IMG/VR virus record: IMGVR_UViG_3300045988_149282
Coordinates: 32,001 to 96,000 of that record
Source: a virus
Lineage: Duplodnaviria; Heunggongvirae; Uroviricota; Caudoviricetes
Strand: one strand, 5' to 3'
DNA: 64,000 bases
Position numbers and translations under genes: made by a program
In this document: positions 3,001 through 40,967 of the stretch, one piece after another
Numbering within the stretch: position 1 is the first letter of the stretch
How the letters are laid out: each line of letters starts with the position of its first letter
Notes under the pieces: generated by a model
What the model saw: the letters and a program-made list of their open reading frames with translations, nothing else
Databases searched by the model: none
Told to the model about the DNA's origin: nothing

Positions 3001-6000
3001 CGAAAAAGGCCGATCAGTCGGCAGTCACTACGCTGACAGGTCGGGTAGAGAAGACGGAGTCCGGTCTGACGGCGGCGAACAGCAACATTACGTCGCTTAG
3101 CAGCTCTCTGAGCCAGCAATCCAAACGCGGCGCTAATCTGCTTCCTGATGGCACTTTTGAAAGCTACGCGGTTGGCCATAATCTATCAAATAATCGCGTT
3201 ATCGTTACCACTGATGACTCTCACGGTGGAAATAAGTGCATCCGTGTGACGCGTCCGAACGACTACAACGCCAACGCAACAGATAACAGCGATAACCATA
3301 TTTTTAGCGGATTTCAGGTTCGCGATAACGCAGTGTTCTACATGGAGTGCTGGGTTAAGCTGGATGCCAATAGCACAGCCATGGCCGAGAACACGCAGAT
3401 CTCTATCGGTTTGTCGCTCCAGTATCAGGATAACTCGTGGCAGTGGCCGGCAGTAACTAAAGCTGCGAAAGATCTGTCTACAGCTCAATGGACGAAGGTT
3501 TCTGGTTACCTGAAATCAACGAAGAGCGGTATTAAGCAGGCAATGGTGAGGATTTCTATTCCTAACGTTAGCAGCGTTAAGGCGGGAAACTCATTCCTTA
3601 TTGATGACCTGGTCATTACCGAAGTAACTGATGCCTACAATGCGCAAAGTACAGCAGATGCTAACGCCAATGCGATTTCGACACTGGACTCGACCGTTTC
3701 CCAACAGGGCGACCAGATCACCAGTCAGGGTAACAGCATCACCAAACTGACAAATGACCTGGCAACGACCAATAACAACGTCAGTAAAAAAGCGGATCAG
3801 AGCGCTTTAAGCGTGTTGTCCGGGCGCGTCGATCAAACAGAATCGGGCTTATCCTCTGCGAATAGCAGTATCACTGCGCTTAATTCATCTGTACGCGCAG
3901 GGAATGCGACAAGTGGCGATTTGATTAGCAACCCGACATTTGACCCAGAGTTTAGTCAGATGGGCTTCACTGTGGTTCCCAGCTCGTCTGAGGGCGTGCC
4001 AGCCAATTGCCCATACGCTTATGTTGCACGCATTGCGGCTCGCGACCATCACCCAAATTTTGCTGCTATTCCGGCGACATTGGGGGATGTCTATGAAATG
4101 TCTGCTCTCGTCGCGTGTGGCACTGGCTCCGCTGATTTCAACCTGTATCTCGGAACCGCAACACGGCCAAGCGGCAGCGTGGGCGCGCCTCTGTCATCTG
4201 GCGGCAACCGCAAGGCGTCGGCCACATGGCAGCGAGTAACCTGGCGTTTCAAAATTACTCAGGGGATTGTCGATCGCGGCTTCTTCCGTCCATTCCTGCA
4301 AATCAACCAGTCCAGCCCGTTCGGCACCGTCTGGTATGTGACCGACTGGCATCTGCGGAACGTAACCGACTCCTCCAAAGTTCAGGATTCTCTCGATGCT
4401 ACGGCGAAAGCGGTTGATTCGCTGACCTCTACGGTAAATCAGCAGGGGGAGAATATCTCCAGCATTGGTACACGTACTACCAATCTTGAGAATAATTTGA
4501 GAACAACAAATGCAAACGTTGCTCAAAAAGCGGACGCCAATGCTCTGACGGCACTGACCAACCGTGTTACCCAGACCGAAAAAGACATTAACTCAACGAG
4601 TTCTTCTGTCACGAATCTGAACAACAAGGTTGATGCAATTTCTGTCGGCGGTACAAACCTGATCAAGAACTCCGGCGATATGACCGGCTGGTCGAACGTT
4701 GTCAGCGATACGTATCGTGGTAACGCGGTAATTGGCGCAACTGTAAAAGCCGGCTCCGGTTACAGGGATTTGCGGGAAATCACGCTTGAGTCGCCGGTCG
4801 ATGCAGGTGAGTACGTTTACAGCTTCTATGCGAAAGGCGGTGTTGCTGGCCAGATTATGACGGCGTTCTTCTACAATCCGAACACTACAACGTCTATCGA
4901 GACCAGCCAGGGTGCGAAGGGTAACAACAGTGATGGCCGTGCGCAGTTCACGCTGACCACTTCATGGGCCCGCTATTGGGTTAAGTGGAAACAGACACCT
5001 ACCACGAGTACCAAGCGCCTGATTCTGTGTCGTATCGAGAGCAATACCTCCAAAGACCAGACGGTGTACATCAACAGTCCGAAGTTTGAGGTAGGTAACG
5101 TTGTTTCCGACTGGAACGAGTCTCCGTCTGATAGTGCCAGTGCGTCGGCTGTGGACTCGCTGACAACGAAAGTGAATCAGCAGGGCACTTCCATTAGCTC
5201 TATCGGAAATCGCACCACATCGTTGGAAAACGGGTTATCGACAGCTCAAAACAACATTGCCAAGAAGGCTGATGCTTCTGCATTGCAGGATCTCCGGAAC
5301 ACGGTGACATCTCAGGGTGATGATTTAACCGCGGCGAACAGCAGCATTACCAGCCTGCATGCCTCGATGAACCGTCGCACTGTGTTTACTGTCACTGCAC
5401 GGGGTAATGGCAACAGCGTTACCCATGGGGTGTTTGATGAAAGCGGCAAGAATCTGTTTACCCCTGGTCGCAGCTGGGCGCTGGTCACTTTTGCAAAACA
5501 CAGCGACGGATCAACGGTGATTGCGACCTCCAAAACATACGATGTCTTTGGCAGCGCGAATAATGGCGCCACGATGTCGGCTGATATCGAGGCACTGGCC
5601 AGTGGGACTTACGTTTGCGTCCTGACATTCGATGAGCCAACTGGCAACCGAGGTAAGGTGTTGTCTGCCCTGGAATCTCTTGGTGGCACTTCCGAAGTCG
5701 TTAACTCTCTGCCGTATCGTGGCGCCTACATTCTCCTTGGCCGCAAAGGTATGAAGCCGGGCGATGGTCTGGAACTGCGTGCGCCAACCGGTGGCGACGG
5801 CACCGCCCACATTTCGACCTCAGTCGAGTTTGTGAACGGGGTAATGATGGGGCTGGGCGCCGCTGGTGGTGTGATGATGAAGGCTGATGCGAACGCATCT
5901 GCAATTACCACGCTCCAGAATACAGTGAAGACCCAAGGGGATAATATTGACTCCCTGAGCTCCTCGACAACAGCGCTGGAAAACAGCCTTGCGTCCAGTA

Positions 6001-9952: not shown

Positions 9953-10042
9953 TTCAATTCGTATGTAAGTGCTTACCTACAATTAGTTTCTAATTTATGA
10001 TATAAATCTGCCATCCGATTTGACTTATTCATGGAGGAAGAC

Positions 10043-32000: not shown

Positions 32001-32002
32001 TC

Positions 32003-38675: not shown

Positions 38676-39749
38676 ATGGCAAAAGGAAAATCCGCACTGG
38701 CACTTGCTCTGAAAAAGAAAATCGGTAGCAACGACGAAATTCAGAAAGTAACTCATTGGATTGATACAGGCTTTCCACCGTTAAACAAAGCTATTTCTGG
38801 TCGTTACGATGGCGGCTTCCCATGTGGTCGTATCGTCGAAGTATTCGGTCCTCCAAGTGCAGGGAAAACGTTCCTTGCAACAGCAGCGATGATCTCCGCT
38901 CAAAAACAAGATGGTCTGGCGGTATTCCTCGATCATGAAAACAGTTTTGACGTTGGCCTGGCTGTAGCCAATGGCCTGAACGCAGATGAGGATGACGGTC
39001 AGTGGGTATACAAGCAGCCTGATACCTTCGAAGACTCTGTAGAGTTGATCGGCACAATTCTTAAATTGGTACGTGATGAAGAGCTTATTCCTGAATCAGC
39101 ACCTATCTGTATCGTGGCTGACTCACTTGCGTCTATGGTTCCGAACTCCAAAGCCGAGAAGTTCGAAAAGATGGCTGAAGGCACTGCCAAAGACAAAGAT
39201 CAGCTAAACATGAACGACAATACGGCACTGGCTCGTGCGACAAGTGCGAACTTCCCTACTCTGGCTTTGTGGGCACGCAAATACAACGCCTGCATCATCT
39301 TCTTGAATCAGGTTCGCACAAAAATCGGTGTAATGTTTGGCGACCCTACTACGTCTCCAGGTGGAGATTCACCGAAGTTCTACGCTTCTGTACGTATCCG
39401 TCTTGGTGCATCGGTGATGAAGGATGGTAAAGAGAAGATCGGCCAGGACGTAGGCGCAGAATGCATCAAAAACAAAGTTGCACCACCGTATGGCAAATGC
39501 ACCTGGAAATTCTACTTCGATCCTACTCGTGGCCTCGACGTTATCGAATCGCTCGTCGAGTACATGCTGGAAGAAGGATACCTGCCAAAGAACGCCAGCG
39601 GGCGAGTTGAAATTGGTGACAAGAAATACACCAAATCGCAGATCGTCGAGATGTATCGGGAGAAGCCACTGGCTGAAATCATTGCGGCTTTGCAGGCAAT
39701 CGACGACCGAAGAGCAAAAGACAACCCAACCGAGTCAGTAGAAGAGTAA
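38676..39749 (+). CDS. RecA/UvsX-like recombinase
   Basis: Walker A GPPSAGKTFLA, Walker B-like ICIVADSLAS; AAAGGAG ribosome-binding site. Confidence 0.7.
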   Translation: MAKGKSALALALKKKIGSNDEIQKVTHWIDTGFPPLNKAISGRYDGGFPCGRIVEVFGPPSAGKTFLATAAMISAQKQDGLAVFLDHENSFDVGLAVANGLNADEDDGQWVYKQPDTFEDSVELIGTILKLVRDEELIPESAPICIVADSLASMVPNSKAEKFEKMAEGTAKDKDQLNMNDNTALARATSANFPTLALWARKYNACIIFLNQVRTKIGVMFGDPTTSPGGDSPKFYASVRIRLGASVMKDGKEKIGQDVGAECIKNKVAPPYGKCTWKFYFDPTRGLDVIESLVEYMLEEGYLPKNASGRVEIGDKKYTKSQIVEMYREKPLAEIIAALQAIDDRRAKDNPTESVEE

Positions 39750-39753
39750 ACAC

Positions 39754-39779
39754 AAGGCGTCCACAGGACGCCTTTTTTA
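39754..39779 (+). terminator. Rho-independent terminator
   Basis: AAGGCGTCC-aca-GGACGCCTT followed by TTTTTAT. Confidence 0.85.
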
Positions 39780-39792
39780 TCTCTTGAAAATA

Positions 39793-39809
39793 TATAAGTA
39801 CTTACTTAT
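39793..39809. promoter_or_regulatory. TATAAGTACTTACTTAT palindromic motif (class-2 family)
   Basis: About 35 bp upstream of the small membrane protein gene. Confidence 0.4.
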
Positions 39810-39841
39810 TATTTTCGCATAACAACCACATAGGAAAACAC

Positions 39842-40042
39842 ATGATCAAAATCTATCTATTGGCAGTAGCCACAGGCGTTTCAGTGGCTCTCATCTACGG
39901 TTTACTGGTTCCGTCGCTGATTTCTACCAAGAGTGATTTAGCCGTCATGTTTGGAGTTATCGTTGGTTTTGGTGCTCCTGTAATCGGTCTTATTGCTGGT
40001 CGTAAGTTTATCAACTCATTAATCAAAGCAAAGGGGAAATAA
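39842..40042 (+). CDS. Small membrane protein (66 aa, two transmembrane helices)
   Basis: Conserved leader AGGAAAACAC-ATG; two hydrophobic helices; 3 nt upstream of the SPFH gene. Confidence 0.5.
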   Translation: MIKIYLLAVATGVSVALIYGLLVPSLISTKSDLAVMFGVIVGFGAPVIGLIAGRKFINSLIKAKGK

Positions 40043-40045
40043 GTA

Positions 40046-40876
40046 ATGAAGAAAGGTTTACTTGCAGTTGCTCTGGCGGCTATTTGCACAATGGGTCTTA
40101 CTGGCTGTGATCGCGTGGAGCCTGGATACGTTGGCATCAAAGTAAACAAATTAGGTGAAGACAAAGGGATCGGTGAAGTGGTTGGCGTTGGTCGCCAATG
40201 GACAGGTCTTAACACCGAACTTTACGTATTCCCGACCTTCAAACAAATGAAGACCTACGACGAACCGTTCACATTCCAGATGAGTGACGGTACTGCTATT
40301 GGTCACAAAATTGGCGTTGCGTATCTGGTTAATCGTGACAAGGTAACGACGGTGTTCCAGACCTATCGCAAAGGCGTAGACGATATCACCGAATCAGATC
40401 TGCGTCAGAAAATTGCCGACTCTCTAAACCGTTTGGCCAGCCGTATGACCACTGACTCATTTATCGACGGTGGTAAGGCGCAATTGCTGGACAACGCACT
40501 GAAAGACATTCAGAAAGAGATGTCTCCGGTTGGTATTGAGGTACTGAGCCTGTCATGGGTTGGAAAGCCTGATTACCCAAAAACCGTCATTGAATCTATC
40601 AACGCCAAAGTAACGGCTAACCAGCGTACTCTGCAACGTCAGCAGGAAGTTGAACAACGTAAAGCTGAGGCGAATATGCTACGTGAACAGGCTAATGGTG
40701 AAGCTGATGCTATCCGTGCTCGTGCTCAAGCAGAAGCAGACGCCATTCGTCTGCGCGGTGAAGCTCTGCGTCAAAACCCGAACGTTATGGAACTGGAAGC
40801 CATCAATAAATGGAATGGCCAGTTACCGCAGTACATGACTCAAGGGGCTAACACTCCTTTCATTACAGTGAAATAA
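40046..40876 (+). CDS. SPFH/band-7 (stomatin/prohibitin/HflKC-like) lipoprotein
   Basis: Lipobox LTGC at residue 21; SPFH-like core followed by an Ala/Glu/Arg-rich coiled-coil (EVEQRKAEANMLREQANGEADAIRARAQAEADAIR). Confidence 0.6.
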   Translation: MKKGLLAVALAAICTMGLTGCDRVEPGYVGIKVNKLGEDKGIGEVVGVGRQWTGLNTELYVFPTFKQMKTYDEPFTFQMSDGTAIGHKIGVAYLVNRDKVTTVFQTYRKGVDDITESDLRQKIADSLNRLASRMTTDSFIDGGKAQLLDNALKDIQKEMSPVGIEVLSLSWVGKPDYPKTVIESINAKVTANQRTLQRQQEVEQRKAEANMLREQANGEADAIRARAQAEADAIRLRGEALRQNPNVMELEAINKWNGQLPQYMTQGANTPFITVK

Positions 40877-40891: not shown

Positions 40892-40918
40892 CAGGCGTCC
40901 AGTTGGACGCCTTTTTTA
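40892..40918 (+). terminator. Rho-independent terminator
   Basis: AGGCGTCCA-gtt-GGACGCCT followed by TTTTTTATC. Confidence 0.85.
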
Positions 40919-40938
40919 TCGCAATTATCTTATTAAGA

Positions 40939-40951
40939 AAACAATTTGTTT
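40939..40951. promoter_or_regulatory. AAACAA-T-TTGTTT palindromic site
   Basis: Perfect palindrome 17 nt upstream of ATG 40968. Confidence 0.45.
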
Positions 40952-40967
40952 AAAAGGATAAGAAAAC

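Follow-up and report, generated by a model that had tools for sequence, protein, structure and literature searches.

A stretch of 64,000 nucleotides from a Caudoviricetes virus (positions 32,001 to 96,000 of IMG/VR record IMGVR_UViG_3300045988_149282; hereafter the window) contains two adjacent genes: the first encodes a small membrane protein with two hydrophobic segments, and the second a lipoprotein of the SPFH (Band-7) family. Their open reading frames lie exactly where an earlier reading of the letters alone (the original prediction) had placed them. They are separated by 3 nucleotides (nt; GTA), and the Shine-Dalgarno sequence of the SPFH gene, AGGGGA at 40032-40037, falls within the 3' end of the small gene.

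39842 to 40042, plus strand: gene for the two-helix membrane protein, 66 amino acids, from ATG at 39842 to TAA at 40042; phrog_1130.
40046 to 40876, plus strand: gene for the SPFH/Band-7 lipoprotein, 276 amino acids, from ATG at 40046 to TAA at 40876; phrog_200.
40046 to 40108, plus strand: lipoprotein signal peptide and lipobox LTGC, residues 1-20 followed by Cys21; positions +2/+3 are Asp-Arg.
40112 to 40672, plus strand: SPFH (Band_7) alpha/beta core, residues 23-209, identified by Pfam, by a predicted local distance difference test score (pLDDT) above 90 over most of its length, and by Foldseek.
40580 to 40774, plus strand: long Ala/Glu/Arg/Gln-rich helix, residues 179-243, a continuous single helix in the model.
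40778 to 40873, plus strand: conserved C-terminal tail AI-x-KWNG-x-LP, with W256, G258 and P261 invariant; pLDDT 46-67.

The second gene product had been described as a lipoprotein with an SPFH-like core and an Ala/Glu/Arg-rich helix, and each of these elements was found. The signal peptide, MKKGLLAVALAAICTMGLTG followed by Cys21, has a basic n-region and a hydrophobic core, and its end agrees with the lipobox pattern [LVI][ASTVI][GAS]C. Cys21 is kept in at least 90% of alignment rows, and Asp-Arg follows the cysteine in 94 of the 99 close homologues with a recognised lipobox. The Pfam Band_7 profile (PF01145) covers residues 23-209 and scores 106.2 bits (E=2.6e-30), where the cutoff is 23.6. 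An AlphaFold (AF2) monomer model built on 67 diverse homologues has a mean pLDDT of 85.7, and comprises the signal helix, an alpha/beta core (residues 21-176), the helix 179-243, and a low-confidence tail.

Comparison of this model with solved structures by Foldseek returned only full-length, cage-forming SPFH proteins: HflK (9e-15) and HflC (about 1e-14) were the best matches, followed by prohibitin, erlin, stomatin, flotillin, and QmcA (8z5g), all at probability 1.00, and by the major vault protein. The alignments have 13-18% identity over 240-300 columns. Sequence-profile matches to the same proteins are weak (2e-6 or worse). The NCBIfam equivalog models for HflK and HflC stay below cutoff (TIGR01932, 30.2 against 134.4 bits; TIGR01933, 18.7 against 159.4), and Flotillin PF15975 gives only a sub-threshold match to residues 208-266 (19.9 bits against 27). 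Clear structural matches with weak profiles, and HflK/HflC models far under their cutoffs, point to a genuine SPFH protein of a separate subfamily. The outcome named in advance as refuting the original prediction, absence of the fold from profile and structure searches, did not occur. The protein belongs to phrog_200 and is the orthologue of coliphage N4 gp20 and of SSU5_062; within the SSU5 lineage, its ratio of nonsynonymous to synonymous substitution (dN/dS) is 0.01-0.04. The long helix (65 residues, 58% Ala, Glu, Arg, and Gln) corresponds, in the model, to the cage-wall helix of the aligned SPFH proteins. The C-terminal tail, conserved yet of low confidence in the monomer model, may be an oligomer contact.

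The first gene product matches phrog_1130 (E=9e-26). Its layout is simple: two hydrophobic segments, a short intervening loop, VPSLISTKSD, and a basic C-terminal tail (GRKFINSLIKAKGK). The charge distribution predicts, by the positive-inside rule, that both termini are cytoplasmic and that the loop is periplasmic. Across diverged loci of the SSU5 lineage, the dN/dS of 0.1-0.3 identifies the open reading frame as a real coding gene. Amino-acid changes accrue in it 4-8 times faster than in the SPFH protein; identity between phage types is 77% for the SPFH proteins and 25% for the partners. The helices diverge; the only strongly conserved feature of the partner, seen again in one phylum after another, is the loop, P-x-[LMF]-[ILV]-S-[AS]-x-[S/T/D]. 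A homology search with the 66-residue protein, for which the word index limits so short a query, retrieved only close relatives, all labelled 'hypothetical'. Membership of the family was established via PHROG, where its category is 'moron/host takeover'. The protein has no Pfam match at E<=1, and 66 residues leave no space for the OB-fold of NfeD; the NfeD-like partner for which a profile search had been proposed is therefore not what this gene encodes.

The linkage of the two genes was followed through two sets of loci. The viral set comprises 82 (80 viral contigs along with the Cyrano and P88 records). A two-helix open reading frame of 55-78 amino acids lies upstream of the SPFH gene in 81 of these, the exception being cut by the contig end, and the partner ends 3 nt before the SPFH start or overlaps it by 1, 4, or 20 nt. 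The further set comprises 87 loci, 86 of them assessable, from Enterobacterales, Sutterella, Dyella and relatives, Leptospira, Bacteroidota, and others. Here the partner is intact in 77 (four fusions included), interrupted by a stop codon in two, and missing from seven. Apart from the partner, the loci examined share no neighbour across lineages. The partner is a distinct, dedicated family, co-inherited with the SPFH gene across phyla and translationally coupled to it.

Some family members carry both parts in one polypeptide. Clustering at 50% identity gave 150 representatives of the SPFH family: 100 are plain lipoproteins with a lipobox, 27 have a signal anchor, 18 are fused to an N-terminal hairpin, and one is fused to a C-terminal hairpin. 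In many lineages the fused elements run hairpin, basic linker, hydrophobic lipobox segment, SPFH, an order whose topology agrees with export of the SPFH domain. The enterobacterial fusion P0021 was modelled as well; the model yields per-residue confidence and secondary structure but not contacts, and in it the N-terminal part forms three helices and turns at the conserved loop. A pseudo-paired alignment of fusions, SPFH-only rows, and partner-only rows was discarded, because MAFFT set the partner-only rows inside the SPFH region. Fused precursors may be split at the internal lipobox by signal peptidase II, which would yield both subunits from a single polypeptide.

One such fusion differs from a two-gene version by a single nucleotide. 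In a type-B version of the pair (locus L046, positions 3990-4020, a P1-like viral contig), the partner overlaps the SPFH start by 20 nt across a run of seven A residues (AATGAAAAAAACG). A 1-nt change in this A7 run produces the 347-residue partner-SPFH fusion P0021, found in eight NCBI sequences. The change may be real variation, slippage, or a homopolymer sequencing error.

Four features describe the transcription of the pair.

39754 to 39774, plus strand: intrinsic terminator of the upstream recA/uvsX-like gene and 5' boundary of the cassette; 9-bp GC-rich stem and U6 run.
39784 to 39812, plus strand: sigma-70-type promoter; -35 TTGAAA, 17-nt spacer, -10 TATTAT, with 10 of 12 consensus matches.
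39795 to 39804, no strand assigned: perfect 10-bp palindrome TAAGTACTTA in the promoter spacer, a possible operator.
40893 to 40912, plus strand: intrinsic terminator closing the cassette; 8-bp stem and U6 run, conserved across relatives.

The original prediction had the pair as an independent transcription unit bracketed by strong terminators. Both hairpins indeed fold at about -15 kcal/mol (upstream, -14.8 with z = -4.6; downstream, -15.1 with z = -4.3), and none of 200 shuffles folded as well in either case. The upstream stem carries a compensatory change, GGCGCCC..GGGCGCC, in the Yersinia pestis plasmid locus L097. The analysis adds the promoter. Such a site is at chance level in a raw scan, and the block formed by -35, spacer, and -10 is nearly invariant in 13 diverged type-A loci with varying flanks. 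Independent transcription of the pair is thus supported, at the level of sequence, by a conserved promoter together with two terminators. The homologous pair of the N4-like phage Jura is likewise bracketed by annotated terminators.

Both terminators of the window share the core GGCGTCC-N3/4-GGACGCC followed by TTTTTTATC, and so form a short direct repeat that flanks the two genes. This repeat could be a trace of cassette insertion.

The palindrome in the promoter spacer occurs elsewhere too. Allowing at most one mismatch, the window contains seven copies, compared with 1.26 expected; the variants are mostly TAAGTGCTTA. The other six lie at 9966, 22097, 24422, 28033, 36275, and 49939, and copies stand just upstream of the genes for a gp32-like single-stranded DNA-binding protein (36374) and a class I ribonucleotide reductase (49999), and of a 111-residue open reading frame (10031). 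Because the palindrome is common to promoters of DNA-metabolism genes, the cassette may belong to a regulated phage regulon rather than being constitutive.

Sequence comparison identifies the window as an SSU5/pHCM2-type phage-plasmid of E. coli. Many non-mobilisable plasmids of about 110 kb match the region at 99.8% identity; for phages CMS-2020a, PhiR41_1, and Cyrano the figure is 93-99%, and for Salmonella phage SSU5 it is about 80%. The module had been called phage-plasmid-encoded; that description fits the window, but the module is not specific to phage-plasmids. On its 5' side lies a gene for a RecA/UvsX-like recombinase, and on its 3' side a DUF7238 gene. The neighbourhood, following the Cyrano annotation, is a recombination and replication block: UvsY, the gp32-like single-stranded DNA-binding protein, an exonuclease, RecA, and then RepA. 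An antisense open reading frame at 39895-40215 (minus strand, 106 amino acids) lacks support and was treated as spurious.

The flanks of the cassette vary among relatives. The recA/uvsX-like gene of the window (38676-39749) is an intein-free allele of 357 amino acids. Its Cyrano counterpart has 779, with a 422-residue insertion exactly within the Walker A motif (GPPSAGK/C.../TFLAT), and a LAGLIDADG homing endonuclease is annotated at the same site in some related plasmids. The slot after recA is itself variable: the SSU5-type Klebsiella phage pJN2-26 has other genes there. The distance from the SPFH stop to the DUF7238 gene, compared with loci L004, L009, L025-L029, and L181, is about 90 nt in the window (site at about 40913-40967), about 0.5-0.7 kb in SSU5-like loci where a DUF2591/NinX-like gene is added, and about 2.1 kb in L004, L009, L025, and L026. 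This varying spacing 3' of the cassette terminator makes the site look like an insertion hot spot.

The original prediction implied that a phage-borne copy is rare. This is not so: at the protein level, the SPFH family was found in 373 sequenced phages, many of them strictly virulent, and the two proteins fall into two sizeable PHROG families. The hosts span Proteobacteria, Bacteroidota, and Leptospira. The mature SPFH coding region occurs at about 75% DNA identity in temperate phages unrelated to one another, among them P1-like, P2-like, phiP27, and Stx2 phages. The pair is located between upl/plp and ban in P1-like RCS47; within the early operon in P2-like P88; between cI and xis/int, in the early-left region, in phiP27 and PPompW-type lambdoid phages; and between the genes for a single-stranded DNA-binding protein and DNA polymerase in an Enc34-like Salmonella prophage. 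An Alcaligenes lambdoid prophage carries it as well. In coliphage N4, it is represented by gp19 ('membrane protein') and gp20 ('lipoprotein'), after the RNAP2 genes. Other carriers include N4-like phages of Erwinia and E. coli, Vequintavirinae-type myoviruses, jumbo phages, crAss-like phages, and Lak megaphages. The partner was confirmed in N4, S6 (an N4-like Erwinia phage), Jura, and KB57 (Vequintavirinae), and in a variant form in a crAss-like phage; the families phrog_1130 and phrog_200 are shared with N4 gp19/gp20, KB57, P88, and a Salmonella prophage. The SPFH family is also present on the Yersinia pestis plasmid contig of about 108 kb (L097), and Dyella and other Rhodanobacteraceae carry the pair on the chromosome, outside a phage context.

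Its own promoter and terminators, its variable presence, and its spread between unrelated phages are the marks of a moron or accessory cassette. Judged by these genomic signs, the module is a mobile accessory cassette among SSU5-, P1-, P2-, lambda-, Enc34-, and N4-like phages and others.

Several records describe the pair incompletely. The partner open reading frame is present and unannotated in L091 (RCS47, 3738-3974), L092 (phiP27, about 3250-3445), and L093 (Stx2_14040, about 3750-3945). The SPFH gene is labelled 'serine protease' in phiP27, in Stx2 phages, in the P88 note, in Erwinia phage Pastis, and in others, probably an error propagated from an older family name.

Two neighbours recur within restricted groups. 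Directly upstream of gp19/gp20 in N4 is gp18 (L180, 2669-2983), a phrog_1510 member annotated 'superinfection exclusion' and resembling P22 gp17; in a gene table for a Vi01-like phage, an SPFH gene also stands beside a P22 gp17-like gene. A three-gene module that includes this neighbour was considered and rejected, since among the loci examined it is confined to N4-type phages. In 24 Rhodanobacteraceae loci (L084, 3131-5444, and 23 in L114-L165), genes for a BlaI-type repressor and a BlaR1-type M56 metallopeptidase divergently adjoin the pair. This adjacency could be a functional link to a membrane protease or sensor, or mere conserved gene order.

These features suggest, as the more probable reading, that the pair is a self-contained two-gene module for an SPFH cage that sits on the inner membrane, faces the periplasm, and has a transmembrane partner of its own. 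In E. coli, Asp at position +2 of a lipoprotein predicts inner-membrane retention. The SPFH protein would be exported, lipidated at Cys21, and retained in the inner membrane by its Asp at +2, facing the periplasm as HflK and HflC do. The fused and signal-anchored variants, which are possible only in the inner membrane, argue for this location. There, on the periplasmic side of the membrane, the protein would assemble into a ring or cage, as its solved full-length relatives do. The partner hairpins would form a transmembrane palisade, replacing the N-terminal helices of HflK, prohibitin, and erlin, and the periplasmic loop of the partner would bind where the SPFH domain begins, close to the membrane.

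The position of the module among early and middle genes indicates that it probably acts in intracellular phage development and is not tied to lysogeny. Strong constraint, combined with spread across virulent and temperate phages of several phyla, suggests a general benefit during infection. As a tentative proposal, the cage might enclose or regulate a conserved host inner-membrane protein, with FtsH or another membrane protease as the prime candidate. A role with a client protein is favoured by analogy with SPFH assemblies on the non-cytoplasmic side of their membranes: HflK/C with FtsH, and prohibitin with the m-AAA proteases. A bolder version, more speculative still, would make the module a portable two-component SPFH nanocage that mimics HflK/HflC, with which virulent and temperate phages alike might enclose FtsH or another enzyme early in infection and so reprogram the turnover of membrane proteins.

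Several observations weigh against this architecture or against the role assigned to it. The seven loci without a partner include chromosomal copies in E. coli and Shigella at 79% identity, and in LUZ24-like and phiCbK-like phages the small membrane proteins encoded upstream are different ones. Outside the close homologues, the +2 residue is often Ser, Thr, or Glu, and so is not always of the retention type. A Pasteurella prophage protein that may be related to the phage family was found in outer-membrane vesicles (PMC9872710). Sequence similarity to HflK and HflC lies far under the family cutoffs, and FtsH is proposed as client by analogy; Arg191 of HflK, the only HflK residue reported to contact FtsH, is not reliably mappable at about 17% identity.

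Among alternatives to an enclosed client, a scaffold without one is possible but somewhat less likely: cage and hairpins would organise or stiffen the inner membrane, preserving its integrity, its fluidity, or the proton-motive force during infection or envelope stress. A broad range of hosts (Proteobacteria, Bacteroidota, Leptospira) would need no specific client, and two sources link the SPFH family to membrane microdomains and stress tolerance (PMC10434171, PMC12005517). The envelope-sensing BlaI/BlaR1-type pair beside the module in Rhodanobacteraceae fits as well, but this synteny lies within one bacterial family and may reflect just vertical inheritance. Moreover, constraint on the whole SPFH surface, evident in the low dN/dS, fits specific interactions at least equally.

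It is rather unlikely that the pair acts early as a block to superinfection or entry, a periplasmic shield that stops incoming DNA or traps an entry factor, loosely comparable to Imm and Sp of T4. The pair does have the traits of a moron, with its own promoter and variable presence among relatives; PHROG places the partner under 'moron/host takeover'; and a P22 gp17-like gene adjoins it in N4 (gp18), as one adjoins an SPFH gene in the Vi01-like phage. A 2026 paper on an N4-like phage, which finds the reason for an SPFH gene in phages unclear, speculates about a role in adsorption or entry (PMC13239085). Yet neither protein matched the PADLOC defence-system models at E<=1, the gp17-like neighbour is restricted to N4-type phages, and chromosomal copies exist outside phages. 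The SPFH domain also stays near-identical between phages that inject their DNA by very dissimilar machinery, an argument against a target specific to the phage.

A function specific to lysogeny is improbable. Here the phage would tune FtsH for the lysogeny decision or its maintenance, as HflK/HflC affect lambda CII; the original prediction had drawn this connection between FtsH and the lysogeny decision. HflK and HflC are the best structural matches, with the same predicted facing, and in phiP27- and PPompW-type lambdoid phages the pair lies early-left, between cI and xis/int. The early-left region of lambda carries the FtsH inhibitor cIII. However, the same module occurs in the strictly virulent N4, S6, and KB57, in crAss-like and jumbo phages, in P2-like phages, and on Dyella chromosomes, and the protein scores below the HflK/HflC cutoffs. 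Given carriage by virulent phages and Dyella chromosomes, the function is unlikely to depend on lysogeny; a general one, of use whenever double-membraned hosts are infected, is more plausible.

Stimulation of Toll-like receptor 2 (TLR2) is a generic property of bacterial lipoproteins. That the SPFH lipoprotein is a lysogenic-conversion factor, a TLR2 agonist or virulence factor directed at an animal host, is very unlikely. The precedent is PM0222 of Pasteurella multocida, an HflK/C-like protein of 25-35 kDa from a lambda-like prophage island that is found in vesicles and signals through TLR1/2, and whose deletion attenuates virulence (PMC9872710); the family also has a member on the Yersinia pestis plasmid contig. 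PM0222 is only a possible homologue of the phage family, and the module is carried by virulent phages and by soil and aquatic bacteria without an animal host.

Hardly any probability attaches to a canonical SPFH-NfeD operon in which the small gene is a diverged NfeD: the order is the same (small membrane protein, then SPFH) and the genes co-evolve as NfeD and SPFH genes do (PMC2636767), but the small protein, at 66 residues and without a Pfam match, is made of two helices and lacks a soluble domain, and export is predicted for the SPFH domain, whereas QmcA faces the cytoplasm (PMC2636767). A spanin or lysis function was rejected: in none of the loci examined does the pair lie next to lysis genes, the protein has the SPFH fold, and Asp at +2 does not fit an outer-membrane destination.

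The reading of the pair as a periplasm-facing cage with its own partner matters beyond this phage-plasmid. Structures of SPFH cages (HflK/C, prohibitin, stomatin, flotillin, erlin) have become available recently, and the roles of most bacterial ones are unclear. The phage family, with one SPFH gene and one 66-residue partner, offers a version that is small, mobile, genetically tractable, and dispensable enough to be gained and lost, and the model phage N4 has the pair. The contents of such a cage would inform both phage takeover of the host and SPFH biology. There is a gain for annotation as well: several reference records lack the partner, and the name given to the SPFH gene is often wrong.

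Among known systems, the closest are direct members of the family: N4 gp19/gp20, SSU5_061/062, and Cyrano CYRAN_56/57. They have the same order and a short gap or overlap, with partners matching phrog_1130 (E=1e-20 to 1e-26) and SPFH proteins matching phrog_200 (E=1e-94 to 1e-108). Nothing essential is different, and their records name them only 'membrane protein', 'lipoprotein', or 'stomatin-like'. A literature search found no functional study of a phage SPFH protein and no description of the hairpin partner.

Imm and Sp of T4, early-expressed small superinfection-exclusion proteins of the inner membrane and periplasm, provide an analogy only, with no relationship to the phage pair in sequence or fold. 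Exclusion by these two proteins is treated in one source (PMC7677548).

The SPFH4 or 'prohibitin-like' subfamily, as defined by Hinderhofer et al. in 2009, was predicted to face the periplasm; it had no NfeD partner, and none of its bacterial members had then been studied. Some homologues of the phage SPFH family are named 'prohibitin family protein' by their sources. Unlike SPFH4, for which no operon partner is reported, the phage family has a conserved one.

The SPFH-NfeD operons (QmcA-YbbJ, YqiK-YqiJ, and Pyrococcus PH1511/PH1510) likewise consist of two genes, with a small membrane protein that co-evolves with its SPFH protein. NfeD has been proposed to sit within the SPFH assembly and co-evolves with it; NfeD partners are 140-150 amino acids long and combine three hydrophobic stretches with a domain of the OB-fold type, and QmcA (YbbK) is oriented towards the cytoplasm (PMC2636767). 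The phage partner, by contrast, is a bare hairpin without a soluble domain, and the phage SPFH domain is predicted to be exported. The 2009 survey of prokaryotic SPFH operons (Hinderhofer et al.) described only NfeD-type partners, and none for the remaining subfamilies (PMC2636767).

HflK and HflC of E. coli, the best full-length structural matches, share with the phage protein an anchor, the SPFH core, the long helix, and a C-terminal tail. Their place is also the predicted one: anchored in the inner membrane, with the bulk of the protein in the periplasm. Two differences stand out. Each phage cassette, and each related locus examined, has one SPFH gene rather than a K/C pair; and where HflK and HflC have an N-terminal helix, the phage protein has a predicted lipid anchor and a 66-residue hairpin partner. 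The families themselves are already catalogued, as phrog_200 and phrog_1130 and under annotations such as 'SPFH domain-containing', 'stomatin-like', and 'lipoprotein'. Set against these systems, the following appear to be new: a partner that is obligate and not of the NfeD type, its fusions with the SPFH protein, the predicted architecture with a lipid anchor and a periplasmic orientation, and the breadth of the module across virulent and temperate phages.

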